From a phage, in sequence record PX246731.1: DNA of 64,000 nt; one strand, 5' to 3'. The stretch's first letter is position 1. Every line of letters starts with the position of its first letter. Positions 1-47,441 of this stretch are shown here, piece by piece. Both the position numbers and the translations under genes were made by a program. The notes below the pieces were generated by a model. The model worked only from the letters and a program-made list of their open reading frames with translations. It had not been told where the DNA came from and ran no database searches.

Positions 1-90
1 TGGTGTGGCTGGGGCTACACCCTTACACTCAACTAGCCCCCCCGGTATGTTGACGGTGTAGCCACTACCCTACCCCACCTTACACGTTAC

Positions 91-105
91 ACATGCTCCG
101 CATGT
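91..105 (+). promoter_or_regulatory. N4-type vRNAP early promoter hairpin (6-bp stem ACATGC/GCATGT, 3-nt loop TCC)
   Basis: Inverted repeat with 3-nt loop; template-strand loop GGA; followed by ttatgga; same architecture recurs at 927 and 1187; upstream of first early ORF. Confidence 0.55.
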
Positions 106-147
106 TATGGACATGTCGTCCTATCATCAACTATTGGAGCTATCATC

Positions 148-471
148 ATGACTACTCAAGCTACTGTACGTATGACCGCAGGAACTTTACTTGGTACTGT
201 TAACTCAGCTGCTACTACTGTTGCAGATACATTTAGTACTGCAACTAAAGCAGTAGGTATGCTTAATTCATATGTAAGTACTATGGCAGAGAAACAAGCC
301 ATTCGTACTAAATTAGAAATGCATACCTTTGTTAATAAACTGGCAGAGGAAACAGCTATGACTGAGACTCTGCGTAAGAAAAGTATTGAGGAATTCTGCA
401 AGGATTCAGAGAACGCTCGTATCTATAACGCAGAATATTCCAAAGTAATTGACATCCTGACTAAAGACTAA
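148..471 (+). CDS. hypothetical early protein (107 aa)
   Basis: ORF with ATG start, followed by intrinsic terminator at 479-505. Confidence 0.6.
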   Translation: MTTQATVRMTAGTLLGTVNSAATTVADTFSTATKAVGMLNSYVSTMAEKQAIRTKLEMHTFVNKLAEETAMTETLRKKSIEEFCKDSENARIYNAEYSKVIDILTKD

Positions 472-478
472 ACCACTT

Positions 479-505
479 AGGAGACTCTTCGGAGTCTCCT
501 GTTTT
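479..505 (+). terminator. rho-independent terminator (GGAGACTC-TTCG-GAGTCTCC + T-tract)
   Basis: Perfect 8-9 bp stem with UUCG tetraloop followed by TGTTTT. Confidence 0.75.
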
Positions 506-561
506 GAACATTAGATAGATAGTCAAAAGTAGATAACTATCTACTTTAAGGAAAGAAAATC

Positions 562-921
562 ATGACTAAATTCCGTTGTATCAAAGGTTCTGTTGCCGTA
601 CCTGTTGGAACAATTATCGTAGGAGAATTGGAAGGAGAACGTATCCGTCTTACCGAGGATTCTACTGTCAGAGATTCTGACAACAATCCTTACTTTGTAG
701 AAGGAGAAATGGTTCCACTAACTGGTTATGTATGGCAATGGGAATCCTGTGAGGGAGAACCAGATAAGGAAGAACTACTGGAACGCTTTGAAGTTGCAGT
801 AGATGTTCTTGCAACCTATGAAAGAGACATCCTTGAATATGGTGAGTCAGATATTGACCACCCCAAAGCAGAGCAAGAGTATGAATCTGCTAAGGCAGAA
901 TTGCTCAAACGTTTGTCTTAA
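562..921 (+). CDS. hypothetical early protein (119 aa)
   Basis: ORF preceded by AAGGAAAG RBS-like sequence. Confidence 0.6.
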   Translation: MTKFRCIKGSVAVPVGTIIVGELEGERIRLTEDSTVRDSDNNPYFVEGEMVPLTGYVWQWESCEGEPDKEELLERFEVAVDVLATYERDILEYGESDIDHPKAEQEYESAKAELLKRLS

Positions 922-926
922 AAACC

Positions 927-941
927 AGAAGCTCCGCTTCT
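927..941 (+). promoter_or_regulatory. N4-type vRNAP early promoter hairpin (AGAAGC-TCC-GCTTCT)
   Basis: 6-bp stem, 3-nt loop; reverse complement GAAGCGGAGCTTC resembles the N4 P2 hairpin core as I recall it; preceded by AAAACC and followed by tattgga as at 1187. Confidence 0.65.
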
Positions 942-965
942 ATTGGATACAATCAGGAGACAGTC

Positions 966-1181
966 ATGAACGTAGAAAATATCCGTATAATTGAGAATTG
1001 CTTTAGCAATAAACCTGTAGACCTCAACAACGCAAGAAGGTCTACTGATAAAGAGTATGGAGAGTTTCTATCCTTACTAGATGAATATCGTATGCAAGGG
1101 CATGTTGAATTACATGCCTATCTGCATAACTCAGGCTACTTCATGGATAAACTGGAAACTAAAACAGGCTGCCCATTCTGA
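966..1181 (+). CDS. hypothetical early protein (71 aa)
   Basis: ORF immediately downstream of promoter hairpin. Confidence 0.55.
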   Translation: MNVENIRIIENCFSNKPVDLNNARRSTDKEYGEFLSLLDEYRMQGHVELHAYLHNSGYFMDKLETKTGCPF

Positions 1182-1186
1182 AAACC

Positions 1187-1203
1187 AAGATGCTCCGCAT
1201 CTT
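1187..1203 (+). promoter_or_regulatory. N4-type vRNAP early promoter hairpin (AAGATGC-TCC-GCATCTT)
   Basis: 7-bp stem, 3-nt TCC loop, preceded by AAAACC and followed by tatgga; third copy of the motif. Confidence 0.65.
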
Positions 1204-1309
1204 ATGGATGATGTAAATGCATCCACTAATCATTGAACTTTTATCCTTTTGTTTGGGTGTTCTCACCGACGAGTTCACCCGTAAATCACATAAATCTGGA
1301 GAGTACAAA

Positions 1310-1690
1310 ATGGCTATTCAAAAATTCACTTTCGGTCAATCTAACGCTGCTGCTTCTACTGCTAAAGCTGATAAACCAAAAGCTCAGTTCTGGCTGAATA
1401 TTGGTTATGTAGCTAACGAAGGCTCTGATGATGAGAAATTCATCTCTCTGCCTACTGGTATTCCACTGGATACTCAGGAACCGCTGCCTACTAATAGCAG
1501 CAATGCTGACTTCCGTGCTATGCGTTGTGCACAGAACGACTTGCTGGAACAGTTAATTGCATATGCTCAGAACCTGGAACCAGGTGAAGAAGGTATCATT
1601 AACCTGCAAGTTCAACTTCGTCGTGTGAAAGCAGAGGCTGCTGACATTCCAGCAGACGAGAATAAATATGCTCGTAAACTGACTTTCTAA
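1310..1690 (+). CDS. hypothetical early protein (126 aa; alternative start 1217)
   Basis: Internal ATG at 1310 has GGAG RBS 8 nt upstream; ATG at 1217 lacks an RBS. Confidence 0.55.
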
Positions 1691-1699
1691 TCAATCACT

Positions 1700-1728
1700 A
1701 GACTCCCTTCGGGGAGTCTTTTATTTTT
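1700..1728 (+). terminator. rho-independent terminator (AGACTCCC-TTCG-GGGAGTCT + T-tract)
   Basis: 8-bp stem, UUCG tetraloop, TTTATTTTT. Confidence 0.8.
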
Positions 1729-1831
1729 AACTAGACGATAAGCTATTTCTACTTTTTGAGTATCTTTAGACGAAGGGTACTGAAACAGTAACCAGATAGA
1801 TATAGATTTATATTAGAAGAGGATATGTACT

Positions 1832-2074
1832 ATGTCTGTATACGAATTAGGCTATTTAATATCTGTTGCTACATGGTTGTGCATCTTCTATGTAGCCTAC
1901 CGAGTAAGATTCATTGTACTGAACTTAGTTAAGTGGGTAGTCACTAAGGCTATCCTTATTGCTAAATTACCAGTTGTATTCATTAAGTGTCTGTTTGCTT
2001 CCATCATAGCTAAAGAGGTGCGTAAGCAACTATGGGCTAAGGAAGCAGAAGACTATGTTAAGAGGAACCAGTGA
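1832..2074 (+). CDS. small membrane protein (80 aa)
   Basis: Hydrophobic N-terminal half; ORF in plus-strand operon. Confidence 0.5.
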   Translation: MSVYELGYLISVATWLCIFYVAYRVRFIVLNLVKWVVTKAILIAKLPVVFIKCLFASIIAKEVRKQLWAKEAEDYVKRNQ

Positions 2075-2220
2075 TGAATTATTCAGAATTGTGGCTTAAG
2101 TTTTATGAAGATTGGCTTAGTGCTGTATCTGGTAGACGCACCGAAGGTGATATGAACCGGGCAAAGGAATTTGCAGATAATTGTATAAAGTCACTGAAGG
2201 AATCGGATGATGTTCACTGA
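2074..2220 (+). CDS. small hypothetical protein (48 aa)
   Basis: ATG overlapping upstream stop (TGATG); below the 60-aa ORF-track cutoff; fills gap in plus-strand operon. Confidence 0.35.
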   Translation: MNYSELWLKFYEDWLSAVSGRRTEGDMNRAKEFADNCIKSLKESDDVH

Positions 2221-2383
2221 CATAGAATCTGCTATTGAAGAAGCTATGTACCGTATGACCAGTGGTCCTCAGATAAGGCACTATGGTCTGGTACAGAAAG
2301 GTCATCTCATTGCTGTACGTATTGTACGTAACAGTAACCCTCAACGTTTTATGTGGACAACTAAATCATGCGTAAGTCATTAA
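2207..2383 (+). CDS. small hypothetical protein (58 aa)
   Basis: Open frame read by eye from ATGATG at 2207; overlaps neighbours by a few codons. Confidence 0.35.
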   Translation: MMFTDIESAIEEAMYRMTSGPQIRHYGLVQKGHLIAVRIVRNSNPQRFMWTTKSCVSH

Positions 2384-2499
2384 TCATGGGAACTAAAGCT
2401 GACGTACAAAAGATGAAAGAGCGTTTGGCTGCTCAGAAACAAACATCTGAACCAGTACGTAAGATTGTTACCTTCAATCATCCAATATTAGGAAACTAA
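2368..2499 (+). CDS. small hypothetical protein (43 aa)
   Basis: ATG at 2368, stop TAA at 2497-2499 directly before next ATG at 2502. Confidence 0.3.
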   Translation: MRKSLIMGTKADVQKMKERLAAQKQTSEPVRKIVTFNHPILGN

Positions 2500-2501
2500 T
2501 C

Positions 2502-2714
2502 ATGTATTTCGTAATCTTTGTAGCACTAATGTATCTAAACGTTTGGCTCACTAATGTAGCAGGTAATATTACTAAAACCTTTGTCACTAATAATGATGCC
2601 AGAGGTTTTGCAATATTTGGTTATGTTACTGCATTAACCAAGGGATTGAGCATAGGCTATGGCTTATGGTTCATATACTATTGTGTAGTCAATTTCCCGT
2701 ATTCATTTATATGA
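2502..2714 (+). CDS. small membrane protein (70 aa)
   Basis: Two hydrophobic segments; ATG start. Confidence 0.5.
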   Translation: MYFVIFVALMYLNVWLTNVAGNITKTFVTNNDARGFAIFGYVTALTKGLSIGYGLWFIYYCVVNFPYSFI

Positions 2715-2773
2715 ACTGGCCTATCACATTAGCCATGTTTGTACTATTAGCCCTTGGTGCATTAGTAGAACTG

Positions 2774-2806
2774 GGAGTCCTCCATTAGGAGGCTCCTATT
2801 TTTTAT
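2774..2806 (+). terminator. rho-independent terminator
   Basis: GGAGTCCTCC-ATTA-GGAGGCTCC hairpin followed by TATTTTTTATT. Confidence 0.7.
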
Positions 2807-2847
2807 TCTTGAATAGTTAGATATGTATTTAAATAGGAGAAATAACC

Positions 2848-3165
2848 TTGAATGAAATTGTTTGTATACTTCCTCAATCAGCTAAGATAGCTGACCGGAA
2901 TATACGTATTCACTTACCATTCCCATTAAGCAATCCATTCGCTCGTAATGAAAGAACCACAGTAGAAGATATAGAGGTAGCTTATGAAGCTTACCTTCGT
3001 AATCGTCTTATTAGTGGTGACAAGCTAATTACAGCAGAGATGGAAAGGATTGCTTCCTTTGTAACAGATAGTACAGGTAAGCCTGTTGGCTTAATTGGTA
3101 CTGAATCTGACGTTAACGTTATTCGTAAAATACTAATGGAGGCACTAAGTGAACAACCTCAGTGA
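2848..3165 (+). CDS. hypothetical protein (105 aa, TTG start)
   Basis: AGGAGA RBS 8 nt upstream of TTG. Confidence 0.5.
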   Translation: MNEIVCILPQSAKIADRNIRIHLPFPLSNPFARNERTTVEDIEVAYEAYLRNRLISGDKLITAEMERIASFVTDSTGKPVGLIGTESDVNVIRKILMEALSEQPQ

Positions 3166-3382
3166 TGTAATTGTAGGTAATGAAATATTCGTTGACCGTA
3201 AAGGTTATGCACGAATTAAACTAAAGGGTACTAATAGAACTATTGTTCGTAAGGTGTATTCTAAACCATTTAGTAATTTCTCTATTGATGAAGTACGCAT
3301 TAATAACGAGATGTACTTCATAGATAGTAAAGTATCCATATGCCATACAGACGGTAAGACCTCACTTGAATATACACATTAA
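3149..3382 (+). CDS. hypothetical protein (77 aa)
   Basis: ORF overlapping upstream gene end, operon-like packing. Confidence 0.5.
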   Translation: MNNLSDVIVGNEIFVDRKGYARIKLKGTNRTIVRKVYSKPFSNFSIDEVRINNEMYFIDSKVSICHTDGKTSLEYTH

Positions 3383-3394
3383 GGAGTAAGCAAA

Positions 3395-3616
3395 ATGCTG
3401 TTCAGCACTAATTATGGTATTTGCCCGATTTGCAATAAAGGAAGAGGAGTTGCTAATCATAAGAAGTGTAGTCGTATTCTACAGAAACGACGGAACCAGA
3501 AAGAATGGGATAAGATATTGGAAAACCAACACAAAGATGAGTTCAAGAAGACGGCTGTTAAAGCATCTACTCAGCTTATTCGTCGTACTAACTTTATAGA
3601 AGGTTATCAGAAATGA
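3395..3616 (+). CDS. hypothetical Cys-containing small protein (73 aa)
   Basis: CPICNKG...KKC motif suggests a zinc ribbon; GGAG RBS upstream. Confidence 0.5.
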   Translation: MLFSTNYGICPICNKGRGVANHKKCSRILQKRRNQKEWDKILENQHKDEFKKTAVKASTQLIRRTNFIEGYQK

Positions 3617-3969
3617 AACTAATCGTAGCTGGTGGAAGAGACTTCGTAAATACCCAAGTAATGATTACAGTATTAATGGATTTAGTGGAGAAGGGTAAGA
3701 TTGACCCTAATCCAGAATTAGTATGTGGTATGGCTCGTGGAGCAGATATGCTTGCATACAGCCTATGGGCTAATAACAAAATGCCTATTCATAATTTCCC
3801 AGCTAACTGGGATAAATATGGAAAATCTGCTGGTTATAGGCGTAATCAGGAAATGGGTGAATTTGCAGATGCTGCTGTATGCTTTTGGGATGGTAATTCC
3901 AAAGGAACCAAGCACATGATTGATATCATGAATAGGCTTAATAAACCCGTATATGTTGTGAGGTACTAA
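3613..3969 (+). CDS. SLOG-family protein (DUF2493/YspA-like)
   Basis: IVAGGRDF ... GMARGAD ... YRRNQEM ... FWDGNSKGTKHMI resembles DUF2493 SLOG-domain motifs as I recall them. Confidence 0.6.
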   Translation: MKLIVAGGRDFVNTQVMITVLMDLVEKGKIDPNPELVCGMARGADMLAYSLWANNKMPIHNFPANWDKYGKSAGYRRNQEMGEFADAAVCFWDGNSKGTKHMIDIMNRLNKPVYVVRY

Positions 3970-4224
3970 ATGATTATTACATATCCTACAGGCAAAAATG
4001 TGGAATATATGGGACATACTATCCAAGTACCACATTGGGTTAAGTATATAGCTCTATATACTCGACAGTATAAGAGTGCTAATACCTCGCTAATAGGATT
4101 CTCTAAGAAGCCTAAGCTAACAGAAAACAATATCTGGGTATCCTCTGGGAGACAAGAAGAAATTGGTTTCTGTGATTTGAGTATTGTCGATAATAACATC
4201 TATGGGACATTGAGAAAGGTATGA
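3970..4224 (+). CDS. hypothetical protein (84 aa)
   Basis: ORF in operon. Confidence 0.45.
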   Translation: MIITYPTGKNVEYMGHTIQVPHWVKYIALYTRQYKSANTSLIGFSKKPKLTENNIWVSSGRQEEIGFCDLSIVDNNIYGTLRKV

Positions 4225-4541
4225 AAACTATTCTAGTAGTTCATGATTCTACATTTACTGATGTAGATAAGATGATGCGTAATATTGATTATGTATCTCA
4301 AACAAGCCAAGCATTCAATGAAGAGTTTATCTTGTACTGTATTGCTGAATCACCACTGGTTCCTATCCTTAAGGAATCAGGACTACCCTTCTCTACAGAG
4401 AACTTCCCGGAAGAACCAGACTATGTAATCTCATTTATATATGACTTACACGATGGCTCTGAAACAAGTGAATTAGCTATGAACCAGTGGCGTAGCAAAC
4501 GTCCTGTGTTCGCATTTCAGGTACTTAAACCAAAGGATTAA
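4221..4541 (+). CDS. hypothetical protein (106 aa)
   Basis: ORF with overlapping start/stop (ATGA). Confidence 0.5.
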   Translation: MKTILVVHDSTFTDVDKMMRNIDYVSQTSQAFNEEFILYCIAESPLVPILKESGLPFSTENFPEEPDYVISFIYDLHDGSETSELAMNQWRSKRPVFAFQVLKPKD

Positions 4542-4543
4542 AT

Positions 4544-4894
4544 ATGAAAGAAATCTTAGTATTCACTACCAATGTACTTGGGCAGCATAACAATGCTGCT
4601 GCCAAATTAGCTTATAAGAAACACGGTGCTCGCTGGGGCATGGCCTATGGTCATTATGGTAATAGCTTTGCCATTCCAGTAAAGGATGGCTATGGTAACC
4701 GAATTAAAGTGAGTGCTATCTATGGCTTCATTGAAGGCTTTATTGCCTATGCATCTTCTAATCCACAGTGGGATTTCAAAGTCATGAGTAATGACTATTT
4801 GGACCCATACCAGTTTATCAATGTTACTGGCAACGTACTGTTACCAGAAGCATGGCGTAAACACTTAGGTGATGCTTACAACTACTGGAGCTAA
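4544..4894 (+). CDS. hypothetical protein (116 aa)
   Basis: ORF; no family recognised by eye. Confidence 0.5.
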   Translation: MKEILVFTTNVLGQHNNAAAKLAYKKHGARWGMAYGHYGNSFAIPVKDGYGNRIKVSAIYGFIEGFIAYASSNPQWDFKVMSNDYLDPYQFINVTGNVLLPEAWRKHLGDAYNYWS

Positions 4895-4896
4895 TA

Positions 4897-5157
4897 ATGA
4901 CTTATGAAGAATTATGGTCTGCTCAAGTCAGAGCCAGAGCACTCACACGACATGACATCTATTGTGCATTACAGAACGAATTAAAGAGTCGTACTAAGCT
5001 GGGTCACATATCTGGCTTAGTTAAAATACCTATGACTAGCCTAGTCTGGCCTTACCAGAAGAAAAGTAATGAGTTTAATGGTAATGGTCTGCATGTACGT
5101 ATCGACTACATTGGTAATGAAAATAGTATTCGTATTACCTTTTGGACTAAGCGTTAG
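4897..5157 (+). CDS. hypothetical protein (86 aa)
   Basis: ORF. Confidence 0.5.
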   Translation: MTYEELWSAQVRARALTRHDIYCALQNELKSRTKLGHISGLVKIPMTSLVWPYQKKSNEFNGNGLHVRIDYIGNENSIRITFWTKR

Positions 5158-5162
5158 GTAAT

Positions 5163-5177
5163 AGCTGCTCCGCAGCT
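5163..5177 (+). promoter_or_regulatory. hairpin AGCTGC-TCC-GCAGCT: fourth vRNAP-type promoter hairpin or intrinsic terminator
   Basis: Same 3-nt TCC loop and 6-bp stem as the three early promoter hairpins, but followed by TTTT and placed after a gene end; lies directly upstream of the RNAP II genes. Confidence 0.4.
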
Positions 5178-5210
5178 TTTGGTTATTAATCACATTTAGG
5201 AGAATAAGCG

Positions 5211-6029
5211 ATGTACTCATCTATTGAACATCAGAAGCAACTCGAAAAACTATTCAATAAAAATCAGCTCTTGCCTCGTATGAGGAAGGAATTCGAGGAC
5301 TCCAAAGAAATTGACTTTAAGGCATTCGCTGCCTATTTAGAAATTGATTATAAGCTGCTCATTGATGCAATGGTGCAGATTGCCCTACATAAACGTGCTG
5401 ACATTCAGACTATGATTGGCTCTCTCATGAGTCACTCAGATGATGCTCAGTATATCGCTGACTGTCTGTATAAGATGGCAGAGAATGACTGCTTCAACTA
5501 TGACCCTACCATCGACAAGTTCGGTGTTATTTATGAGATTAGTGAAGATGTACAGATGGAACTGGAAGCATTCCAGTATCCATTACCTATCGTAAGTGCT
5601 CCTAAACCTGTTAAGTGTAACCGTGATACTGGTTACTACGAGAGCAGAGGTAGCATCATCCTCAAGAAGAACCATCATGAGATGGATGTCTGTCTTGACC
5701 ACATCAACCGCATGAATAACCAACGTCTCTGTATTAACTGGGACGTTGCTAACTATGTAAAAGACTCCCGTCCTAACATGGATAAACCCAAAGAGGGTGA
5801 AACCCGTCAGGACTATGAGAAACGTGTCAAAGCCTTTGAAAAGTACAGCCGTACAGCTAAAGAAGTAATGGAGTTAGTGACCAAAGAAGGTAATAACTTC
5901 TCCTTGGCTCATCGTTACGATAAGAGAGGGCGTACATATGCCTGTGGTTACCACATCAACTATCAGGGAACCAGCTACAACAAAGCTGTACTTGAGTTCG
6001 CTGATAAGGAGTTAGTAAATGAAGACTAA
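5211..6029 (+). CDS. phage RNA polymerase II small subunit (N4 gp15-like, N-terminal half of a T7-like RNAP)
   Basis: 272 aa, close to the N4 gp15 size; paired with the following 405-aa ORF carrying the HDCF motif. Confidence 0.65.
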   Translation: MYSSIEHQKQLEKLFNKNQLLPRMRKEFEDSKEIDFKAFAAYLEIDYKLLIDAMVQIALHKRADIQTMIGSLMSHSDDAQYIADCLYKMAENDCFNYDPTIDKFGVIYEISEDVQMELEAFQYPLPIVSAPKPVKCNRDTGYYESRGSIILKKNHHEMDVCLDHINRMNNQRLCINWDVANYVKDSRPNMDKPKEGETRQDYEKRVKAFEKYSRTAKEVMELVTKEGNNFSLAHRYDKRGRTYACGYHINYQGTSYNKAVLEFADKELVNED

Positions 6030-6180
6030 CATTGGATCCTATGAGCTATGGGTTAATGAAGAGTGTATCTACTCAGGTACATATGTGAAGTGCTTATACT
6101 TTGAGAAGCTTTACAAGCTTCAAAACCCTGAGAGTAAAACCATTATTTATAAACTATCTGCCGACGTAGTAACCGCCTAA
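6019..6180 (+). CDS. small hypothetical protein (53 aa) between the RNAP II subunit genes
   Basis: ATG with AAGGAG RBS 7 nt upstream; open frame read by eye; below ORF-track cutoff. Confidence 0.4.
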   Translation: MKTNIGSYELWVNEECIYSGTYVKCLYFEKLYKLQNPESKTIIYKLSADVVTA

Positions 6181-6236
6181 CTATCCAATAAGCAGGCTCT
6201 CCATAGTGGGGAGCCAAGAAGCAAAAGGAACATAAA

Positions 6237-7454
6237 ATGCAACTGTTAACCGCTAAACAATACCTGAAAGTAGATATTGCGAACTCATATGGCTTAGATA
6301 AAAAGACGTGGGATGAACGTATTGCCTGGTTCGATGAGAACGAAGCTAATCTGCTTAATCTGGTAGATGAGGCTGAAGATTCTGCTCTGTTCTTTGCTGG
6401 TATAAATGCATGGAATGATATGAAAGCTGGTAAGCCTATCGGTTATGCCGTAGCTCTGGATGCTACATCCTCTGGCTTGCAGTTACTGGCCTGTCTGACT
6501 GGTGACCGTTCTGCTGCTGAACTGTGTAATGTAGTTAATTACATGGGAGAGAATGGTAAGCCATTACGTCGTGATGCTTATACAGTTATCTATCACAAGA
6601 TGCTGGACATCCTTGGCGAAGCATCACGTATTAAACGCAGTGACACTAAGCAGGCAGTTATGACTGCATTCTACGGTTCAGAAGCCAAGCCTAAAGAAGT
6701 ATTCGGTGAAGGTATTCGTCTCAAGACTTTTGAGAATGTAATGGAAACTGTTGCTAGTGGTCCTTGGGCACTTAACAAGTTCTTACTGCAATGTGGTAAC
6801 CCGGATGCTAACCGTTACATATGGATACTGCCTGACAACTTCCATGCTGTCATTAAGGTAATGGTTCCAGAAGTACAGACTGTTAACTTCTTAGGTAAGC
6901 CATTCGACATCACTCGTATGGTTCAGGGTACTGAAGAGAAGACCCGTATGCTCTCTGCTAACATCACCCACTCTATTGATGGGATGGTGGTACGTGAGAT
7001 GCTGCGTCGTTGTAATTTCGACCGTGAATTAGTGGAAGCTGTGCGAGAACTCTGCGATGAAGGTCCATCAGAATATGGGGAGATTGCAGGTAACCTGGAG
7101 AAGGTACAGGAGTTGTGGAGCCATTATGAAAAGTCTGGCTTCTTATCCGTATCAATCCTGGACTATCTTGACCCATGTACTATTGCTTATGTAGACCGTC
7201 AGGTAGTAGCAGATATGATTGATACTATGCCTAAGAAGCCATTCCCTATAATGACTGTGCATGACTGCTTCCGTTGTCATCCTAATTACGGTAATGACCT
7301 GCGTCGTCAGTACAATCAGATTCTGTCTGACATCGCTAAGAGTGACTTACTGGGCTTCATCCTGTCTCAGGTATTAGGACAAGAGTTCTCTGCTGGTAAG
7401 CTGGATGACAACCTCTGGCAGGACATTCTTGAAACAGACTATGCATTAAGTTAA
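6237..7454 (+). CDS. phage RNA polymerase II large subunit (N4 gp16-like, T7-like RNAP catalytic half)
   Basis: 405 aa; TVHDCFRCHP resembles T7 RNAP motif C (HDSF). Confidence 0.7.
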   Translation: MQLLTAKQYLKVDIANSYGLDKKTWDERIAWFDENEANLLNLVDEAEDSALFFAGINAWNDMKAGKPIGYAVALDATSSGLQLLACLTGDRSAAELCNVVNYMGENGKPLRRDAYTVIYHKMLDILGEASRIKRSDTKQAVMTAFYGSEAKPKEVFGEGIRLKTFENVMETVASGPWALNKFLLQCGNPDANRYIWILPDNFHAVIKVMVPEVQTVNFLGKPFDITRMVQGTEEKTRMLSANITHSIDGMVVREMLRRCNFDRELVEAVRELCDEGPSEYGEIAGNLEKVQELWSHYEKSGFLSVSILDYLDPCTIAYVDRQVVADMIDTMPKKPFPIMTVHDCFRCHPNYGNDLRRQYNQILSDIAKSDLLGFILSQVLGQEFSAGKLDDNLWQDILETDYALS

Positions 7455-7461
7455 TAAACTA

Positions 7462-7494
7462 GCCTCATTCCTTCGGGAGTGAGGCCTATTTTTT
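7462..7494 (+). terminator. rho-independent terminator (GCCTCATTCC-TTCG-GGAGTGAGGC + T-tract)
   Basis: 10-bp stem, UUCG loop, CTATTTTTT. Confidence 0.8.
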
Positions 7495-7511
7495 GCTTGG
7501 AGATAACAACT

Positions 7512-7694
7512 ATGCTAATCCCTTTTGAAGTAATCTTTCAGCTAATACTGATAGTTTTATCTGTACTGGTTCTGTCTACAATAGTTCATGCCCACAAATC
7601 TAAGTTTGCTTATTACTACTATGGAGCATACTCACTAGGCTGCTTTGTAATGGCAGGATGGATAGCTTTTGCTATCTACTGTGTAAACAACTAA
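7512..7694 (+). CDS. small membrane protein (60 aa)
   Basis: ATG with GGAG RBS; the listed GTG start at 7479 lies inside the terminator hairpin; two hydrophobic helices. Confidence 0.5.
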   Translation: MLIPFEVIFQLILIVLSVLVLSTIVHAHKSKFAYYYYGAYSLGCFVMAGWIAFAIYCVNN

Positions 7695-7721
7695 CCCTCT
7701 TAACGGAGGGTTTATTTTTTT
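7695..7721 (+). terminator. rho-independent terminator
   Basis: CCCTCT-TAAC-GGAGGG then TTTATTTTTTT. Confidence 0.7.
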
Positions 7722-7768
7722 ATCTGTCATGTATACTAACTCTGCTATTTACTTATGAGGAAATTGAT

Positions 7769-8602
7769 ATGCCAACTTTGAAAGTAGGTTTTAACAAAAC
7801 CACTAATGTTGCAACTGTACTGGATGCCAGTGGCTCTATCCCAGGTGGTTCCGTAGAAGTAGGAACCTTTGTACATCCAGATGCCACTTACCCTGATAGC
7901 TTAGTTATCTATCATGGTGTTCGTGACCTGCTGTATAAACGTTCTGCCAAAGACCCTAGTAAAGCAGGCTTCTGGCCTAATAACATCGTGGATATGCAGT
8001 CTATCTCTATTGATATGAAAGCTACTCCACGACTGACTATTGCTACTAAACTGCCTCGTGTAGTCTCTGCTATTGAAGGTGAAGGCATCAACTGGCATAT
8101 TGATGTAGTAGGCGGTAAAGCACCATTTACTTATAAATGGCAATTCAAAGCTAATACCGCTGGTGCAACATTCGCTGATATTAGCTCCAGTACTAACCCA
8201 TCTGCTGCTACTGCAACACTGACACTTAACGACGTAACAGCTGCTTCCGCTGGTACTTATAAAGTGATTGCTACTGATGCTAATGGAACCACGGTAGAAG
8301 ATACGTCACTGCTGGCTGTAGGCTACTACGAAGCAAGCTCCCTGGTAGCTACTCCTGCTTCACTGGCTCTGTCTGTTGCTGCCGATCTTGCTGCTGGTAA
8401 GACTGTAACAATTGCTGCTATGCCTGTTGGTTCTTCTGCTGGTACTTTGTCTATCAAAACTGCTCCAGATTCTGGTCGTGCTACGGCTACCATTGCTGGT
8501 AACGTACTGACAGTTAAACCAGTAGCTGCTGGTGATGCTACTTCTGTAGTAGTTACCAACGGTACGGTCGATGTAACCATCGCTGTTACTGTTGCAGAGT
8601 AA
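7769..8602 (+). CDS. Ig-like domain protein, probable capsid decoration protein (N4 gp17-like)
   Basis: Ala/Thr/Val-rich beta-strand-type sequence (TYKWQFKA...SAGTYKVIATDANG) reads as Ig-like; listed start 7658 spans a terminator, so ATG 7769 with GAGG RBS is used; flanked by strong terminators. Confidence 0.55.
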   Translation: MPTLKVGFNKTTNVATVLDASGSIPGGSVEVGTFVHPDATYPDSLVIYHGVRDLLYKRSAKDPSKAGFWPNNIVDMQSISIDMKATPRLTIATKLPRVVSAIEGEGINWHIDVVGGKAPFTYKWQFKANTAGATFADISSSTNPSAATATLTLNDVTAASAGTYKVIATDANGTTVEDTSLLAVGYYEASSLVATPASLALSVAADLAAGKTVTIAAMPVGSSAGTLSIKTAPDSGRATATIAGNVLTVKPVAAGDATSVVVTNGTVDVTIAVTVAE

Positions 8603-8652
8603 GGGTATCCCTTATTTGGGGTTATAAACCCTGAAAGGAAACCCTCAAGATT

Positions 8653-8682
8653 GGCCTCCCTATTGAAGGGAGGTCTTTTTTT
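8653..8682 (+). terminator. rho-independent terminator
   Basis: GGCCTCCC-TATTGAA-GGGAGGTC then TTTTTTT. Confidence 0.8.
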
Positions 8683-8707
8683 GACTTAAACAAACCGGAG
8701 CCAGGAA

Positions 8708-8896
8708 ATGTATAAAGAGATTGCATTCTTCTCGTTCTTATTAGGTGGGTTAATTGGTGCAGGATTTGTAGCTATTTCTAATACCTACTTTGGTTCTACT
8801 CCAAACTCTGTAACACAAACCCTCAAGCATGAATGTGAATTGAATATCCCTCGTAATCAAAACTGTGTAATGCAGTTCGTACCGGAGAAGAAATGA
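8708..8896 (+). CDS. small membrane protein (62 aa)
   Basis: Hydrophobic N-terminus; ORF. Confidence 0.45.
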   Translation: MYKEIAFFSFLLGGLIGAGFVAISNTYFGSTPNSVTQTLKHECELNIPRNQNCVMQFVPEKK

Positions 8897-9078
8897 AACT
8901 TACTCAGTCCCAAGCAATCTTCCTTCGCATGGTTCAAGGTGGTTCTGCCACTAGTAACCGTAATAACAAAACCGCACAGTCTCTTAAGAAGCTGGGCTTA
9001 GTACAGTTCAATGCTGGTCTTGGGTGGTCATTAACCCCTACCGGAGTACTGCAACTCAACGAGATGAAAGGTAACTAA
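8893..9078 (+). CDS. hypothetical protein (61 aa)
   Basis: ORF with overlapping start. Confidence 0.45.
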   Translation: MKLTQSQAIFLRMVQGGSATSNRNNKTAQSLKKLGLVQFNAGLGWSLTPTGVLQLNEMKGN

Positions 9079-9408
9079 ATGAAAACTTTACTTAAAGGTA
9101 TTGCAGTAGCTGCACTGATAGCTTTGGCTCCAAATGCACAAGCAATTGAGCCAGAACCAATTCTGGAAGGTGCTCAGGCTTATCTGGATGACACTCGCGA
9201 TGCGTTCGGACAAGGATTCTTCATGGGCAGTATGATCTCTTACATCGAGAGCACAAATAACTGTGTTCCGGATGGTATGAAGTATTCCGACATTCTACCT
9301 AAGATTGCCAAAGTAGTTATTTATGATTCTGCAATCCTCAAATTGAAGAATACATCTCAAATTGTCGTGTACTCCGTACACAAGGCATATCCCTGCACTA
9401 AATCTTAA
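9079..9408 (+). CDS. secreted/periplasmic protein with signal peptide (109 aa)
   Basis: N-terminal MKTLLKGIAVAALIALAPNAQA signal-peptide-like sequence. Confidence 0.5.
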   Translation: MKTLLKGIAVAALIALAPNAQAIEPEPILEGAQAYLDDTRDAFGQGFFMGSMISYIESTNNCVPDGMKYSDILPKIAKVVIYDSAILKLKNTSQIVVYSVHKAYPCTKS

Positions 9409-9442
9409 TCAGTAATCCCATTAGCTTTAGGAGAGTAAGTAA

Positions 9443-12243
9443 ATGGCAAGCATCGACTCCTTGACTGTATGTAATTCACGTCAAGCTCGTAACTTTATTA
9501 TCCGTGCCCTGAAAGCAGGTAACGTACCGTTCCTGACTTCATCACCTGGCATGGGTAAATCTGCAATCATTCGTTCTATTGCAGAAGAATTTGGTATGAA
9601 GTTAATTGACCACCGTCTATCTACTTCTGCCCCGGAAGACCTGTCTGGCTTACCTTTCCGTAATGGTGACCGTGCAGAGTTTATTCCATTCGCTGACTTA
9701 TTCCCCATTGAGGGAGACGAAGTACCAGAAGGCTATAATGGCTGGCTCTTATTCCTTAACTGACGGGGCTTCATGAGAGCAATCTCATGTCGAAAGTTAC
9801 CTAAACAGGGAACCTCTTCTAATATGGTTGGCTCAGGTGTATACTTGAGTTTTAATCAATTGGAGACAATCCTGTGCTAAATAATGAAATTTGGAAAGAT
9901 GTGCCCGACTTACCGTATGAAGTTTCCAACTTTGGTGTAGTACGCCGAAAAGAAGGAAAGTATAAATACAAAAATAGGACACATATAAAACCGTATCTTA
10001 ATAACAAAGGGTACTACTGCGTGAACCTGTACATGAATAGTAAAGTGTACAAATATCAAGTTCATCGTCTGGTAGGCATAGCCTTTGTACCAAACCCCAA
10101 TAACTATCCAGTTATTAATCATATAGATGGAAACCCTCTTAATAACCACGAGAGTAACCTGGAATGGTGTACCCAGTCCCAAAATATTAAACATGCTTGG
10201 GATACTGGATTATTGTCAAACAGACATGCCAACGCTAGTAACAAAAATCGTGGAGGCTCCTCCAAATACGTAGGTGTATCCTGGAGTGAGCAAAGACAAA
10301 GATGGTGTGCCCATATAAGGGTTAACAAGAAATCTATTGGTTTGGGACGTTACAAAACAGAGGAAGAGGCTGCCAAAGCCTATGACTCCTACGTAACTAA
10401 CAACAATCTTACACAGATTGGGTACAGTACCAATTTCATTTAAACGCCAAACGACTATCGAAAACACACAGAAATGTGGAAGTGAGTAGAGTAGGGTGCA
10501 AGCCAATGGCACTCGAAACGGTAACAGCCCTAGCAATAGGGCTTTGATATAGTCTCCTCTGCATGGTGACATGCAGCAGTCAGTATTCACTGAGTGTACT
10601 GACGGCATTAGTAGTTGCGAACTAATGTGAAGATAATGCGACGAGTTCAACTCAGCTAAGAAAGAAGTAGTAGCTGCTGCATACAAGCTGATTCTCGACC
10701 GTATGACTGGTCAGAAAAAGCTTCATCCTAACGTGATGATTGTCTGTGCTGGTAACAAAGCTACCGACCGTGCCATTGTTAACCCATTGGGTACTGCAAT
10801 GCAGTCTCGTGTGGTTCACTTTGAAATGGAACTTAACTTCGACATCTTTGTTGAAGACGTAATGATTCCTCAGCAATGGGATGAACGTCTGGTTGCATTC
10901 TTACATGCTAACCCAGGTTACCTGCATGACTTCGACCCAGCACACAAGAACAAAACGTTCTGTTGCCCACGTAAACACACTGCGATTCAGGGGAGTAATT
11001 CCCTGTCTAAAGCTGCCTAAAACGGGAAACACTTTACATTCTGTTGCCTAAAGGTAATATGTAAAAGTCAATCCGTTACTAAATTGGGAGTCAGCATGAG
11101 TGAGATTTGGAAAGATGTTGTTGAATTTGAAGGTTTATACCAAGTATCTAATACAGGTAAATACCGTAAGCATGAGTCACGCCAATCTGTAAATAAGTAC
11201 AGAGAAGTTAAGCCCCTTATCAGGGCACTTAACAAGAACCGATTAGGTTATCTGTATGCCTCTATGTACAAAGATGGGAAGACTCATAAGAAAACTATTC
11301 ATCAACTCGTTTGTGCAGCATTTAAACCAGGCTTTAAGTATGGTGATCCTGTTAACCACTTAGATGGTAATAAGGAGAATAACCATGAAGACAACCTGGA
11401 ACCATGCACCGCACAAGACAATAATCTCCATGCTCATAAAACTGGGCTAGCCCCTAAACCAGGTAAGTCTGTGTACCACAATGTGCACATACGTCGTAGT
11501 AAGTATAAAGATAAAATTTACACTTATTACGAAGCCAAGGTTAAAGATAATTACAAGGTAGTATTCTACAAACAGTTTAAAGATGAGGTAGCTGCTGCTA
11601 AAGCCGTAGATGCCTATCTGGACTCAATTGGGGATACTAGACGTAAACGTAATTTCTGACTTCCATAAATGTCCAACGACTATCCCGGGGAGGGAGTAGA
11701 GCATAAGCCAATGATGCTCGAAATGGTAGCCACCCTACAGGTAATGCTAAGGGTGTTGATATAGTCTAGTCTGCATGGTGACATGCAGCAGTTCATAAGA
11801 GAACGGGCGTAGTCTTGCGAACTACGTCGAATATCACGACCTGGGACTTTGTTAATAAAGACCTCAAGAACCTACCGGAAGGTGCTCTGCCTGATGAGGA
11901 TTCTATCTACTATGCAGGACACGTTACTGCTGGTAAGGCTACAGAGTTTGTTCAGTTTACACAGGTGTACAATCGTATCATTACGATTGAGAAAGTAGTC
12001 AAAGACCCACTGGGCTGTGCACTACCGGAAGATAACAACCTGTGCTGGGCTACTGTTAACCATCTGGCTAACAAAACTACTGAAGAGAACTTCGCTGATG
12101 TTCTTCAGTACATTGAACGCTTTAAAACGTTCACCCATAAGATTCTGTACTTCCGTACAGTAGGCAATGCATTACCAGATCTTCAGGCTACCCCTGAATG
12201 GCGTAAGGCTGCTGCTAATATCTCTCGCTATATTCACGGATAA
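9443..12243 (+). CDS. AAA+ ATPase (MoxR/AAA_5-like) split into three exons by two group I introns; predicted exons 9443-9756, 10639-10972, 11839-12243 (351 aa after splicing)
   Basis: Walker A SSPGMGKS in exon 1; joining exon 1 to exon 2 recreates Walker B LLFLDEF; all three exon frames are continuous and sum to 1053 nt; splice points approximate. Confidence 0.6.
9757..10638 (+). mobile_element. group I intron 1 (approximate ends) carrying an HNH homing endonuclease ORF
   Basis: Contains sequences matching group I core elements as recalled: P-like CCTAAACAGGGAA, R-like CAACGACTATC, S-like TGATATAGTC; intron ends in G and the 5-prime exon ends in U under the proposed junction. Confidence 0.55.
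9874..10443 (+). CDS. HNH homing endonuclease with C-terminal AP2-like DNA-binding domain (intron-encoded)
   Basis: HNH-type His/Asn motif (HRLVGIAF...NHIDGNPLNNHESNLEW) and AP2-like YVGVSWS...RWCAHI...GRYKTEEEAAKAYD; GTG start with GGAGA RBS. Confidence 0.7.
   Translation: MLNNEIWKDVPDLPYEVSNFGVVRRKEGKYKYKNRTHIKPYLNNKGYYCVNLYMNSKVYKYQVHRLVGIAFVPNPNNYPVINHIDGNPLNNHESNLEWCTQSQNIKHAWDTGLLSNRHANASNKNRGGSSKYVGVSWSEQRQRWCAHIRVNKKSIGLGRYKTEEEAAKAYDSYVTNNNLTQIGYSTNFI
10973..11838 (+). mobile_element. group I intron 2 (approximate ends) carrying an HNH homing endonuclease ORF
   Basis: Shares P-like GCCTAAAACGGGAAAC, R-like CCAACGACTATC and S-like TGATATAGTC plus the 3-prime TTGCGAACTA block with intron 1. 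Confidence 0.55.
11096..11659 (+). CDS. HNH homing endonuclease with AP2-like domain (intron-encoded, paralogue of 9874-10443)
   Basis: N-terminal SEIWKDV...EGLY motif shared with the first endonuclease, HNH core and AP2-like C-terminus; ATG with GGGAG RBS. Confidence 0.7.
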   Translation: MSEIWKDVVEFEGLYQVSNTGKYRKHESRQSVNKYREVKPLIRALNKNRLGYLYASMYKDGKTHKKTIHQLVCAAFKPGFKYGDPVNHLDGNKENNHEDNLEPCTAQDNNLHAHKTGLAPKPGKSVYHNVHIRRSKYKDKIYTYYEAKVKDNYKVVFYKQFKDEVAAAKAVDAYLDSIGDTRRKRNF

Positions 12244-45600: not shown

Positions 45601-47441
45601 AAGCTATCCATAGACATGATGTTGTCATACATCTGGATTGCAGCTTCCATTTGAACGTTAGGGTCTTCGGCAGTATTAACCAAGTCAGCCATCTTCTGAA
45701 TAGCTTCAACACGGTTAGTGGAACCAGAAACAGCTTCACGGATTGCCGGGCTAGCCTGTTCCAGTTCTACTGGGTCAAACTTCATTACCTGAGTTAAGTC
45801 AGCAGCATACTGTGTAGCAGCAGCTTTCTCTTCAGGAGAAATGTCCATTGCATCTACTGCTTCCTGAACAGTTGCCTGTGCCTGTTCTGCCTGAGCAGTA
45901 GCTTCTTGTGCAGCAGCGTTAACCGTAGCATCAGATACAGGGGATGCTTGCTCATTACGCTTAGCAACTTCTTCACCACGCTGAACCAGGATGTTAGTAA
46001 TAGGTGAAGCTACTTTCGCTAATGCTTTACCAGCCAGAGAAGCACCAGCCAGGGTAGTACGTACAGCAGGACCTACGGCAGCACCAGCAGCCTTAACAGT
46101 TGCACCAGGAGCTTGAGCAACTCCAGCACTACCGAAGCCATACAGTGCACCAAGCCCGGTTTGTTCACCCACACCTTTAAGCAAATCACGATTAGCATCT
46201 ACATTACCTTGAATTGCTTTGTTCTGTGCAAACTGACTTGTACCAGACTGGATACCTTCTTCTACAGTCTCACGCAGCATGTTAGAACCAGCTCCAGCCA
46301 GTGAACCTACCTTAAGTGGGTTAAGTTCAAACTTGGATACCAGTGGAGCAGTAAGAGCAGCAACTGGAGCAGTTAAGCCAGCAGCAGTGATACCTGTTTC
46401 AGATGCAGTCTGACGACGTGCTTCTTCAGGAGACAGACCATCTTTAATATGCTGTTGGTATACAGGAGATTTAGCAGCCAGTTCACTGAACGGCATTTCC
46501 ATAATTTCATTAGCAGTCTGCTGGTATGCACCACCAGCTTCCATACCACCAATTGCTATAGCAGGTGCAGCAACACGACCAGTAGCTAATGCAGTACGTG
46601 CAGGACGCGAACCTAATTCAGCAGCTAGGGTAATACCCTTAACAGCTTTATCACCACCTACCATTACTTTACCAAGTGCAGATACACCACGGATAAGTGG
46701 ACCACCAGTAAACAATGAACCAACACCCTCAGCCAGACCATCTGTAGCAGCCATGCCATTAGATAAGGTGTTAGCAACAGAATCATAAGCATCACGACCA
46801 ATTCGAGATAGGGAAGCAACGAGTTCACTTTCTCCTTTATCAATATCTTGCTTATAGAGTTTCTCATTCTCCTGAGCAGATATTACGTTCTGGTTCTGTA
46901 CTACATTACGGCGAGCATTCAGTGCATCAGACTGTAGGTTGTGTACACCTTTATTTAACCAGTCAAGACCGGAAGCAGTGGATGCCCCGGCATTATCATT
47001 GACCAAACCTGTGCCAAGAGCAGCAATGCCCCCAAGGGTATTAGCAACACCAAGACCAACACCAGAAAGGGTATCACCAAGTGCTTCACCATATGTACGA
47101 CTCTTAGTTAAATCACGACGAACAGCATTAGCTGCATTGACACGAGCATTGAGAATGTCCATTCCTTGCTCATTGCCATACTTGTTTATGATTTCAAGAG
47201 GAGAGGCATTAGTAAAATCTGCCTGAATAGAACCTGGGTTAAATGCACCAGCACCTAAGTTACCAGCACGGCCTGCCTGTAATTGGTAGGCGTTCTGTGG
47301 GGTTAATTGGAAAGGGTTTTGCCCTTGTTCAGCTTGTTTCCGAGAGGTTGCAGTAGAGACATCGACTTGCTTAGCAGTAGTGATGCTGTCTGCGAAACCT
47401 GCCAGACGGTCAAATGTTGACATAGCATGATTCCTGTTCAA
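36636..47441 (-). CDS. virion-encapsidated RNA polymerase (vRNAP, N4 gp50-like), 3601 aa
   Basis: Single uninterrupted 10.8-kb ORF, the size class of N4 gp50; sits with RNAP II genes and hairpin promoters. Confidence 0.85.
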   Translation of the reverse strand: MNRNHAMSTFDRLAGFADSITTAKQVDVSTATSRKQAEQGQNPFQLTPQNAYQLQAGRAGNLGAGAFNPGSIQADFTNASPLEIINKYGNEQGMDILNARVNAANAVRRDLTKSRTYGEALGDTLSGVGLGVANTLGGIAALGTGLVNDNAGASTASGLDWLNKGVHNLQSDALNARRNVVQNQNVISAQENEKLYKQDIDKGESELVASLSRIGRDAYDSVANTLSNGMAATDGLAEGVGSLFTGGPLIRGVSALGKVMVGGDKAVKGITLAAELGSRPARTALATGRVAAPAIAIGGMEAGGAYQQTANEIMEMPFSELAAKSPVYQQHIKDGLSPEEARRQTASETGITAAGLTAPVAALTAPLVSKFELNPLKVGSLAGAGSNMLRETVEEGIQSGTSQFAQNKAIQGNVDANRDLLKGVGEQTGLGALYGFGSAGVAQAPGATVKAAGAAVGPAVRTTLAGASLAGKALAKVASPITNILVQRGEEVAKRNEQASPVSDATVNAAAQEATAQAEQAQATVQEAVDAMDISPEEKAAATQYAADLTQVMKFDPVELEQASPAIREAVSGSTNRVEAIQKMADLVNTAEDPNVQMEAAIQMYDNIMSMDSFINRDPGALANLEQGSPAANIVDQFSGLMANVQNTPKVLRAFRAIHSMIQEQAEAGKLKATEKANQAQANNIAMAADMSPEVLDADSVNMVLKHASEGKITLGNRQRAALQSAAALLQGAREFDAKAEELGLRPQDIVSKQIKTDESRSNEGQYSALQHAKRIRSAYNSGNFDLASAYLDDFMKFAQHMQNKVGALNEHLISGNADKNKSVHYQALTPSREWVRSRTGLGVNPYDTKSVKFAQQVGLEAKTVADIANALATAYPELNVSHVKVTPLDSRLDKPAAQVVKEFRQGNLDAAQSQQTNEPVNQVDEAPVIKQEPVTPTVQTKPSVSEAVKTEPTIKESKPQTVKEPENQSEKQDIVEQPTESERDSYVKENTISQDTLNKYGDRRDSPWLFADGTVVGSNGDHISLSDVFGHDGYRDMSLDTGAVRSTFYKGSEQPFVSLQLFDNQKLTAEQFNTVQSFVEANNALIQIGVDTSGLNTNNVEKEEVSLAQLKADYTVGGKPLSGMEAVFPVYNNEKTPNQFLKAFSLPEEPKSRTIGSESPLTDVKKALSSAARFEAFTQKENNALTSDVIKRYQDLFEFGETLKTTLSDRLAKFLANKNVGKRFAEGTEANRWVGGKLLNIVEKDGDTFKFNDQLLETAVLAGLQWRLTATQNAAIKDMQDVAAITGVNASLLPEGILAEFENAQTLVEATNSLAQKIESYWGLNRNADAPLGYTKGIPMAMATEILSSLIEMGEVKESMLDVSEIDPESNKTIGLYTIEKLDDTDAINKFPTAIEEAVLVEPVEKLYFGDDIPPVAHTQLRNPAVRNTPEQKAALKAEQATEFFVHTPMVQFYEALGKDRILELMGAGTLDKDLLNKNHAKSLEGKNRSVEDSYNQLFSVIEQVRAQSEDISSVPIHYAYNMTRVGRMQMLGKYNPQSAKLVREAILPTKATLDLSNQNNEDFSGFQLGLAQALGIKVHKMTRETMSEELTKALEGKLKPAVDMMVEFDKSGYLPTDAVNILTTSLGNDKSFVALMALMEYARYLNSDDRANFNTPLYVEADGVTNGPINAMVLMTGGKFTPNWIKNTAKGGLFFGKAGKTMNEHHTQEDSVDLYEASTNSLQFYLNELRNAYSKNIPVINQMDHLQKLMDLFIKDFNLNEDGTLDLKRGIAKNPLTITIYGSGARGIAGKMVSAITDTIYERLSDVLKARAVDPNISPAMAMFGKEAASEADAQAMLDTFLTSMKALTGNIPAKRKGKLFIKEVDGVLTGKLDPQEFTVSGDALKNLQENMLHFFVEPMRQGIRFTVGDGLMQSTENLQKATQIQSLVLQDMFQQAVQAKLAEKEKDPTWKKGDFLTQKELNEIQNSLAPLAPMIETGSQTFYIAGSENTDVANQVLATNLDDRMRVPMSIYAPSQAGVAGIPFMTIGTGDGMMMQTLSTMKGAPKNTLKIFDGMNIGINDITDASRKANEAVYTSWQGNPIKNVYESFSKFVKNVDLNKLSDSAIDAIAKSALDFEQRTHIARVDGDRDYKISMIKDSGIALIERNLRNIALGVDIRHKVMDQVQVTVDQMAAVGAPYVNNGKISLEGLTVDQQVAKLNELFDAELNKRRDAVRAAKAEPVKEVPAMEQVGRVLKSGVRLLSNTAITKLAKEMSPEQQEVLKEIQKSLAAKDYKVVYGTPSQLDAYAIEKNITRPAPEDIEAAEAGNAYGWTNFEDKTIYLVTPSLETLVHELVHASTFESVLAHYEGTPNEAVQNIEDLMNQFRALDVNDESPAVREAYADALNTINGHLSNGFIEPAMAKAAALNEYMAWGLTNRELISKQKKTTALKTMVQAVYEAIKRLVFGRKKAPANADDMFSGLLFNSAVVMRGQAPTAAVAKDTTLFHNKAYGDNTRLEELGKTFDKLITNYIGSEPVQQVIRKGKFSDAVVNATKVTRDVQAHGFTMNMQEQRLFTNIVAALATEAAINPAAMARAQEYYTHVTKNLTVEAFMADPDSTNPADRYYAQQKFDTIMGANNIEFDAQGRSSLLPTFVGLAMVSEEVRKVLADIPVMKADKKSGNTVDAMLTNIGTAAMASLNARVAGDTKATNVQEGMDALAQTIMQTSLNAESFYDSVATPTGNAIDRANQYLVDSIDVLSTRALEGAREVAANTKNPLVKGAAHAAQLVAAIATEKNGSIVAEGVMAAMNQGKVWQPFHDLVNDIIGRTKSNASVYDLIKAVRAQVQADRQQFREHLPTTIAAKFSRKLTNDEWKAMHTGMGKTDLAVLRDTMSLDEIRDLLTDQKIVDREVNKLEADLQKQAGRNWPLINRKSKQLAQYMINGTVGNNLLRNATAISRLLGERKTTRSVVDVAQLDKLITLYALEAMNKIDREMLSSLAQTEIEGMDFATSYLVGQRKDEMAKAKSDSRATLNQYKGYIPGETKQGVNLIVAEDSQFADLIEKSYVRLGTYQGSSANRGSARSYYFAPVQAQAPFSQGILQNVRNTAGGVDLGTGFTMGTMVAGRITDKPSVDRITKALARGERGNEPLLPVYDANGNVVAYEQSIDPNMLKHIEGENHLARAIGVWRGRQVEEAKAQRFNDMLIENLHSMYENDIKMSASNKSQYVNLLGSKLDPVTADALKLMNSETRQKAESLFGPGELWVRRDMLNDALGYRAASVGDAWSGNSRWSPETLDTFKKAMLGVFGNRAYKYVMGGENLVQNLVKEAKTLIVVKSVVVPAVNFLANLYQMVARGVPVKNIAKSIPQKTAEINQYLKSRLRQVDAEAELRAATNPNQIRKLKAEIQSISDSHKRLSIWPLLEAGEFSSIADAGIGRDDILITEGKLHEYMDKLADKLPKSVRNAGRYALITKDTALFQGIQKTVEYSDFIAKAIIYDELTQRKGKTREEALGRVTEEFINYDRLPGRFRGYMESVGLMWFYNFKIRSAKVAVSMIRNNPVHAAMAMLAPTPTMFGNVGLPIQDNIFSIAAQGNLGYSFGFGQGLRAHTLNPWLNLTN

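Follow-up and report, generated by a model that had tools for sequence, protein, structure and literature searches.

How short DNA hairpins act as promoters has been established in phage N4 over several decades. The virion RNA polymerase (vRNAP) transcribes gp1, gp2, gp15, and gp16, and gp15 and gp16 are early products in N4. The N4 vRNAP promoters are conserved from -17 to +1 and contain a GC-rich heptamer centred at -11, with inverted repeats on both sides (PMC4496689). An early promoter of this type has a 5-7-bp stem, and its 3-nt loop reads 5'-GRA-3' on the template strand. The polymerase recognises -11A/G, -10G, -8G, and +1C, and four template A's serve as a ruler (PMC4496689). In the stem, variation outside the required bases is tolerated if the pairing of the hairpin is kept (PMC4496689). 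A cryo-EM structure with the P2 template oligonucleotide ...CCAAAAGAAGCGGAGCTTC... contains two GTPs in the active site (PMC13492108). As to the number of early promoters in N4, a 2026 paper speaks of three in its introduction and of "four early promoters (P1-P4)" in its discussion. Related sites are described in other N4-like phages. In Klebsiella phage KP8, the site orthologous to the one studied here is tabulated as putative promoter P4 (PMC6950046, Table 1). The early hairpin promoters of Pseudomonas phage LUZ7 have been mapped by ONT-cappable-seq (PMC9163698). A literature search on N4/G7C-like phages found no transcript mapping other than that for LUZ7 and no binding assay for a Gamaleyavirus.

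The window analysed here is the whole 64,000-nucleotide stretch of phage DNA in record PX246731.1. By megablast, it is a Gamaleyavirus of the G7C/ECBP1/IME11 type, a coliphage within the N4-like Enquatrovirinae, at about 94% identity. The inverted repeat AGCTGC-TCC-GCAGCT lies on the plus strand at 5163-5177. Its coordinates, together with its position past a gene stop and before the RNAP II genes, agree with an earlier note on this DNA, which had left open whether it is a promoter or a terminator. We read it as an N4-type early promoter for the injected vRNAP and as the ortholog of N4 promoter P3, with a probability of roughly 90%. This reading is based on the fit of the sequence, orthology, covariation, and the conserved contact residues of the polymerase.

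The hairpin consists of AGCTGC (5163-5168), TCC (5169-5171), and GCAGCT (5172-5177), and would occupy promoter positions -18 to -4. The template (minus) strand form is 5'-AGCTGC GGA GCAGCT-3', a perfect 6-bp stem closed by the 3-nt loop GGA, and template-strand DNA folds exactly in this way (-5.7 kcal/mol, z = -3.4). The GC-rich heptamer GCTCCGC on the plus strand (5167-5173) is centred on -11, with C5170 corresponding to template -11G. It also carries template -10G, -9C, and -8G, and the template reads GC-GGA-GC. The TTTT spacer (5177-5180, plus strand) covers positions -4 to -1 and corresponds to the "four As" ruler of the template. The earlier note had the hairpin followed by TTTT; the four T's are there, but the first of them is the last base of the stem, and only TTT (5178-5180) follows it. 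Next comes GG at 5181-5182 (plus strand), the predicted +1 and +2, which are 11 and 12 nt past the loop centre. Judging from the spacing shared with the other hairpin sites, transcription would start at G5181. The predicted 5' UTR of 30 nt (5181-5210, plus strand) includes the Shine-Dalgarno sequence AGGAG at 5198-5202. Stem and loop, heptamer, 4-nt spacer, and GG all follow the sequence rules of an N4 vRNAP early promoter. The geometry also matches that of P2, whose template reads ...CCAAAA-GAAGC GGA GCTTC and in which the GTPs pair with the CC before AAAA.

The site, at 5.2 kb, is on the plus strand, co-oriented with the early genes, within the left ~10% of the genome. It starts 5 nt past a TAG stop (5155-5157), which ends an 86-aa ORF (4897-5157, plus strand), and lies 33 nt before the ATG (5211) of the RNAP II small-subunit gene. 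The 86-aa ORF gave no alignment with N4 gp14 and is not homologous to it. A scan for sigma70 sites found no host-type promoter near 5163, and an Rfam scan of window positions 1-9000 (E <= 1) gave no match at the site. Upstream of the hairpin is a conserved block, CGTTAGGTAAT, which was considered as an additional promoter element. The block is formed by the 3'-terminal part of the 86-aa ORF, stop codon included, and is common to KP8-like phages; a remnant is found in N4, and it is absent from G7C and pSb-1, both of which still have the hairpin. It was rejected as a promoter element because it is the end of an ORF and is missing where the hairpin persists.

In N4, GCTYCGC-N7-GG occurs exactly three times within the first 10 kb, where 0.02 sites would be expected. 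The sites lie at 90-102 before gp1, at 557-573 before gp2, and at 4546-4562, 40 nt before gp15. Of these, the one at 557-573 corresponds to P2 as published. That at 4546-4562 we take to be promoter P3, by elimination and in agreement with the P3 sequence. N4 P3 is reportedly an experimentally mapped promoter, and the window site is a predicted one. The window hairpin and N4 4548-4566 have an identical core, GCTGCTCCGCAGCTTTTGG, with matching strand and matching location with respect to gp15. The promoter reading offered in the earlier note is strongly supported both by the base-by-base fit to the vRNAP rules and by the hairpin being the positional and sequence ortholog of the one upstream of N4 gp15. 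A full-text literature search with the P3 sequence string matched only the KP8 table. Three sites are also present in G7C, again preceding gp1, gp2, and gp15. The RefSeq record of G7C (NC_015933, positions 1-9000) has no annotated promoter features; what is annotated there is a terminal-repeat misc_feature at 1-1160 and one stem_loop at 8126-8145.

The earlier note had seen three further TCC-loop hairpins in the window, and a scan for perfect stems with 3-nt loops recovered them, all on the plus strand. One is at 91-105, in the P1 position, with a 6-bp stem, before the gp1 ortholog (66% identical). Another, at 927-941, also has a 6-bp stem; it precedes a 71-aa ORF (966-1181) and is extra compared with N4 and G7C. 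The last is at 1187-1203, in the P2 position, with a 7-bp stem, before the gp2 ortholog (68% identical). The hairpins at 927 and 1187 start 5-6 nt past a stop codon, as does that at 5163, and neither has a T-run. All four hairpins have the GC-TCC-GC core with GG 11-12 nt past the central loop base. GG at the same spacing is present in 4/4 window hairpins, 3/3 N4 hairpins, 3/3 G7C hairpins, and 15/15 orthologous loci. The pattern GCTCCGC-N7-GG is found four times in the 64 kb against 0.10 expected, 40-fold over chance, and none of 100 shuffled sequences reached four sites. All four are on the plus strand in the first 5.2 kb, co-oriented with the early genes. A relaxed scan of the window gave no further site in which the core, the outer stem pairing, and GG come together. 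The TCC-loop hairpins at 9367-9381 and 9920-9932 were rejected as promoters and look accidental: both are within ORFs and without the GC core, and GG is either missing or not in register.

To call the 5163 hairpin the fourth of its kind, as the earlier note did, is misleading. It is the third member of the gp1/gp2/gp15 triad in N4 and G7C. Since it is the conserved P3, it is not a supernumerary hairpin, and the extra, lineage-specific one is that at 927-941. Several observations concern this extra hairpin. Its stem AGAAGC/GCTTCT equals the stem of N4 P2, and ATAACTATCTACTTTAA, which immediately precedes P2 in N4, recurs at window positions 533-549. Together, the P2-like stem and this recurrence suggest that an insertion between gp1 and gp2 brought in two ORFs and a duplicate of the promoter. 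The ORFs flanking 927-941 are those at 562-921 and 966-1181. KP8 shares the four-hairpin layout with the window, whereas N4 and G7C have three hairpins.

Conservation was examined in 17 IMG/VR loci, which were taken via alignment of the RNAP II small subunits. At a protein identity of at least 66%, the GC-TCC-GC hairpin is present upstream of the RNAP II gene in every locus (15/15, all of Enquatrovirinae type). The distance from hairpin to gene is 30-43 nt, or 266-292 nt in four loci (L018, L022, L023, and L029), in which an extra small ORF is inserted after the hairpin. In these four loci, the ATG of the inserted ORF is about 10-12 nt past the predicted +1, leaving a very short leader, and a GGA-rich Shine-Dalgarno sequence overlaps the predicted 5' end of the transcript. 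The hairpin is kept where the upstream gene differs, as in G7C (L019), pSb-1 (L020), and N4.

Covariation was assessed in an alignment of 18 hairpins, comprising those of the RNAP II-gene orthologs and paralogous promoters. In this alignment, 99.1% of the stem cells are paired, compared with 10-56% in register-slid controls. Compensatory changes occur at three of the six stem pairs, including -15:-7 and -16:-6; they are T:A to A:T, C:G to G:C or A:U, and one G:C to C:G. No variation occurs in the GG, in the loop, or in either inner GC pair, and the heptamer is unchanged in all 18 hairpins. This combination of invariant bases and covarying outer pairs fits the vRNAP promoter rules derived from N4 biochemistry. 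The spacer varies in the orthologs (TTAA, TTGT, TTTA, and TTTC, with two to four T's in 8 nt). More distant Schitoviridae were also sampled, namely Achromobacter phage Axy24, Erwinia phage Gutmeister, Burkholderia phage HN04, Stenotrophomonas phage Pokken, Agrobacterium phage OLIVR3, and loci L031 and L032; LUZ7 itself was outside this sample. None of those sampled has a 3-nt-loop hairpin with the GC core in the 500 bp preceding the RNAP II small-subunit gene, which argues that the arrangement is specific to the N4/G7C/KP8 group.

The polymerase that would read these sites is encoded on the minus strand at 36636-47423. It has about 3,600 aa and shares 68% identity with N4 gp50; the program-made ORF extends to 47441, with the likely ATG 18 nt inside. 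K114, R119, W129, K268, K849, K850, D901, and R904 are conserved with respect to N4, and the residues that read -11G, -10G, and -8G are kept. The sole change at a promoter contact is in the beta-intercalating hairpin, where K267 is replaced by N and K268 is kept. In N4, K267 helps to melt the base of 7-bp stems.

By analogy with N4, the 5163 hairpin would be extruded in a supercoil- and SSB-dependent manner, bound by vRNAP, and used to set the start site in the window phage. E. coli SSB would melt the non-template arm, leaving the template mini-hairpin 5'-GCTGC-GGA-GCAGC-3'. W129 of vRNAP may then stack on the flipped-out -11G, and -10G, -9C, and -8G may be read via K114, R119, D901, and R904. 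With the four template A's acting as the presumed ruler, the RNA would begin with GG at 5181-5182. The resulting transcript is predicted to carry the RNAP II small subunit, a 53-aa ORF, and the large subunit, and to end probably at the terminator at 7462. Together with the promoters of gp1 and gp2, the 5163 promoter would supply four proteins for middle transcription.

The genes downstream of the hairpin are indeed those of the RNAP II subunits, as the earlier note had stated. The small subunit, the ortholog of N4 gp15 (5211-6029, plus strand, 272 aa, 66% identity), matches phrog_2166 "N4-like RNA polymerase" (3.3e-117). The 53-aa ORF between the two RNAP II genes (6019-6180, plus strand) matches phrog_15352 (4e-41). 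The large subunit, the ortholog of N4 gp16 (6237-7454, plus strand, 405 aa), matches phrog_2051 (1.7e-175) and the Pfam family PF00940 RNA_pol (2.8e-14). The statement that the 5163 hairpin is the only one placed to drive these genes also holds, as the hairpin and sigma70 scans gave no other candidate promoter upstream of them. An 8-bp hairpin, GGCTCTCC-ATAGT-GGGGAGCC, with one G:U pair and no T-run after it, lies at about 6195-6215, in the 56 nt that separate the 53-aa ORF from the large-subunit gene. This hairpin may serve in RNA processing or stability.

A strong terminator-like hairpin on the plus strand (7462-7495) has a 10-bp stem, a UUCG loop, a T6 run, and a folding energy of -17.3 kcal/mol, and probably closes the RNAP II transcription unit. 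Terminator-like hairpins with a UUCG tetraloop are found after the gp1, gp2, and gp16 orthologs, at 480-499, 1700-1719, and 7462-7485. The N4 equivalents are at 493-512, 1079-1100, and 6680-6705, the last after gp16. With the UUCG hairpins following these three orthologs, each early unit has a hairpin promoter at one end and a strong stem-loop at the other. The early region appears to be made of short vRNAP units that run from a hairpin promoter to a terminator-like hairpin, and N4 is arranged likewise. The first unit appears to run from the promoter at 91 through gp1 to the terminator-like hairpin at 480-499. The second appears to have the promoters at 927 and 1187, the 71-aa ORF and gp2, and the terminator at 1700-1719. 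The third appears to consist of the promoter at 5163, the small subunit, the 53-aa ORF, and the large subunit, with the terminator at 7462. These units fit the published transcription of gp1, gp2, gp15, and gp16 by vRNAP. With respect to host-type promoters, sigma70-like matches are depleted in window positions 1-10000, with 6 against 27.5 +/- 5.6 expected. In the N4 early region (L001, 1-8200), there are 13 against 25.4 expected. The depletion is consistent with early avoidance of the host RNAP.

Could the hairpin also work at the RNA level? The best surviving alternative, an unlikely one though one that deserves some weight, keeps the promoter and adds a weak RNA-level terminator or pause that insulates the RNAP II unit from upstream read-through. 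With 6 pairs, including 4 GC pairs, and 5 T's in the next 8 nt, the hairpin is accepted by a lenient terminator scan, and it lies 5 nt past a stop codon. Read-through RNA could reach the site, as the stretch from 1719 to 5163 is free of strong terminators, and many terminators of the N4-like phage LUZ7 are weak and leaky. However, the RNA stem alone has only -7.2 kcal/mol. The clear terminator-like hairpins of the window (1700, 7462, 7693, and 8653) have -10.3 to -17.3 kcal/mol, with 8-10-bp stems, 4-5-nt loops, and six or seven T's in the next 8 nt. At 5163, three T's follow the stem, four if the last stem base is counted, and then comes GG; an uninterrupted U-tract of about 6-8 nt, conserved in relatives, is absent there. 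The orthologs have the variable spacers given above, which indicates that the U-tract is not under selection, and the N4 ortholog is not flagged by the same terminator scan. The promoter hairpins at 927 and 1187 are also directly past stop codons, yet have no T-run. The location past a stop and the T's, which had suggested a terminator in the earlier note, thus do not tell a terminator from a promoter. Termination as a selected function likewise finds no backing, considering that the spacer T's are also present in N4 P2 and are replaced in orthologs, and that the RNA stem is weak. A specific form of this double use, which we regard as slightly less probable still, is that the palindrome works twice, as a promoter in DNA and as an RNA hairpin that attenuates read-through by RNAP II or the host RNAP. 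If true, RNAP II synthesis would be confined to the vRNAP (early) phase, and this would apply only to the phages with a TTTT spacer, namely N4, the window phage, ECBP1, and IME11.

Far less probable is a hairpin that only terminates, ending the upstream gene cluster, with the RNAP II genes transcribed from elsewhere. The hairpin and its T's do come straight after a stop codon. Nevertheless, it is the promoter-specific features that are conserved (the TCC loop, the GC-GC closing pairs, and the distance to GG), and not the U-tract. The RNAP II gene also keeps its hairpin in L019, L020, and N4, where a different gene is found on the upstream side, and upstream of the RNAP II genes there is neither a sigma70-like site nearby nor another hairpin motif. 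Last, a functionless chance palindrome is the least probable reading of all and is effectively refuted by the conservation data: perfect 6-bp hairpins with 3-nt loops are common (about 45 in the window), and the TCC-loop hairpins at 9367 and 9920 look accidental, but the full motif occurs four times against 0.10 expected, is conserved with covariation in 15/15 related loci, and has a core identical to that of N4 even though the flanking proteins are 66% identical or non-homologous.

The biology of the promoter at 5163 is already known, and the hairpin raises no new question. Its value is mainly for annotation, as the site marks where the early unit for the middle-phase RNA polymerase begins, and promoter features are missing from the public records of close relatives such as G7C. 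The promoter triad of N4 gp1, gp2, and gp15 is kept, with covariation, across Enquatrovirus, Gamaleyavirus, and KP8-like phages.

Compared with known systems, the 5163 hairpin has some likeness to intrinsic (rho-independent, T7 class I-like) terminators, being a GC-containing stem-loop with T's just past a stop codon. It differs from them in its 6-bp stem, 3-nt loop, -7.2 kcal/mol, and short, unconserved U-run. The LUZ7 promoters share a short stem, a conserved 3-nt loop, a G start, and an injected vRNAP. They differ in starting 13-14 nt from the hairpin centre, in sequence, and in having stems from 4 bp up. Closer is KP8, whose four hairpins are at 89, 962, 1225, and 5965, compared with 91, 927, 1187, and 5163 in the window. 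KP8 P4 (L029) also precedes the RNAP II small-subunit gene and has the same loop, inner pairs, and GG; its stem is AAGCAGC/GCTGCTT, with a compensatory change from T:A to A:T, its spacer is TTGT, and it is likewise predicted only. N4 P2 shares the heptamer GC-TCC-GC, the TTTT spacer, and the GG start, whereas its outer stem is GAAGC instead of GCTGC, and it drives gp2 and not the RNAP II genes. N4 P3 differs in lying 40 nt instead of 33 nt before the ATG of the RNAP II small subunit, in a stem that can be extended to 7 bp (AAGCTGC/GCAGCTT) compared with 6 bp in the window, and in its non-homologous upstream gene. It has the same core, GCTGC-TCC-GCAGC-TTTT-GG, on the same strand, and the operon downstream is also the same, with a strong terminator at its end.
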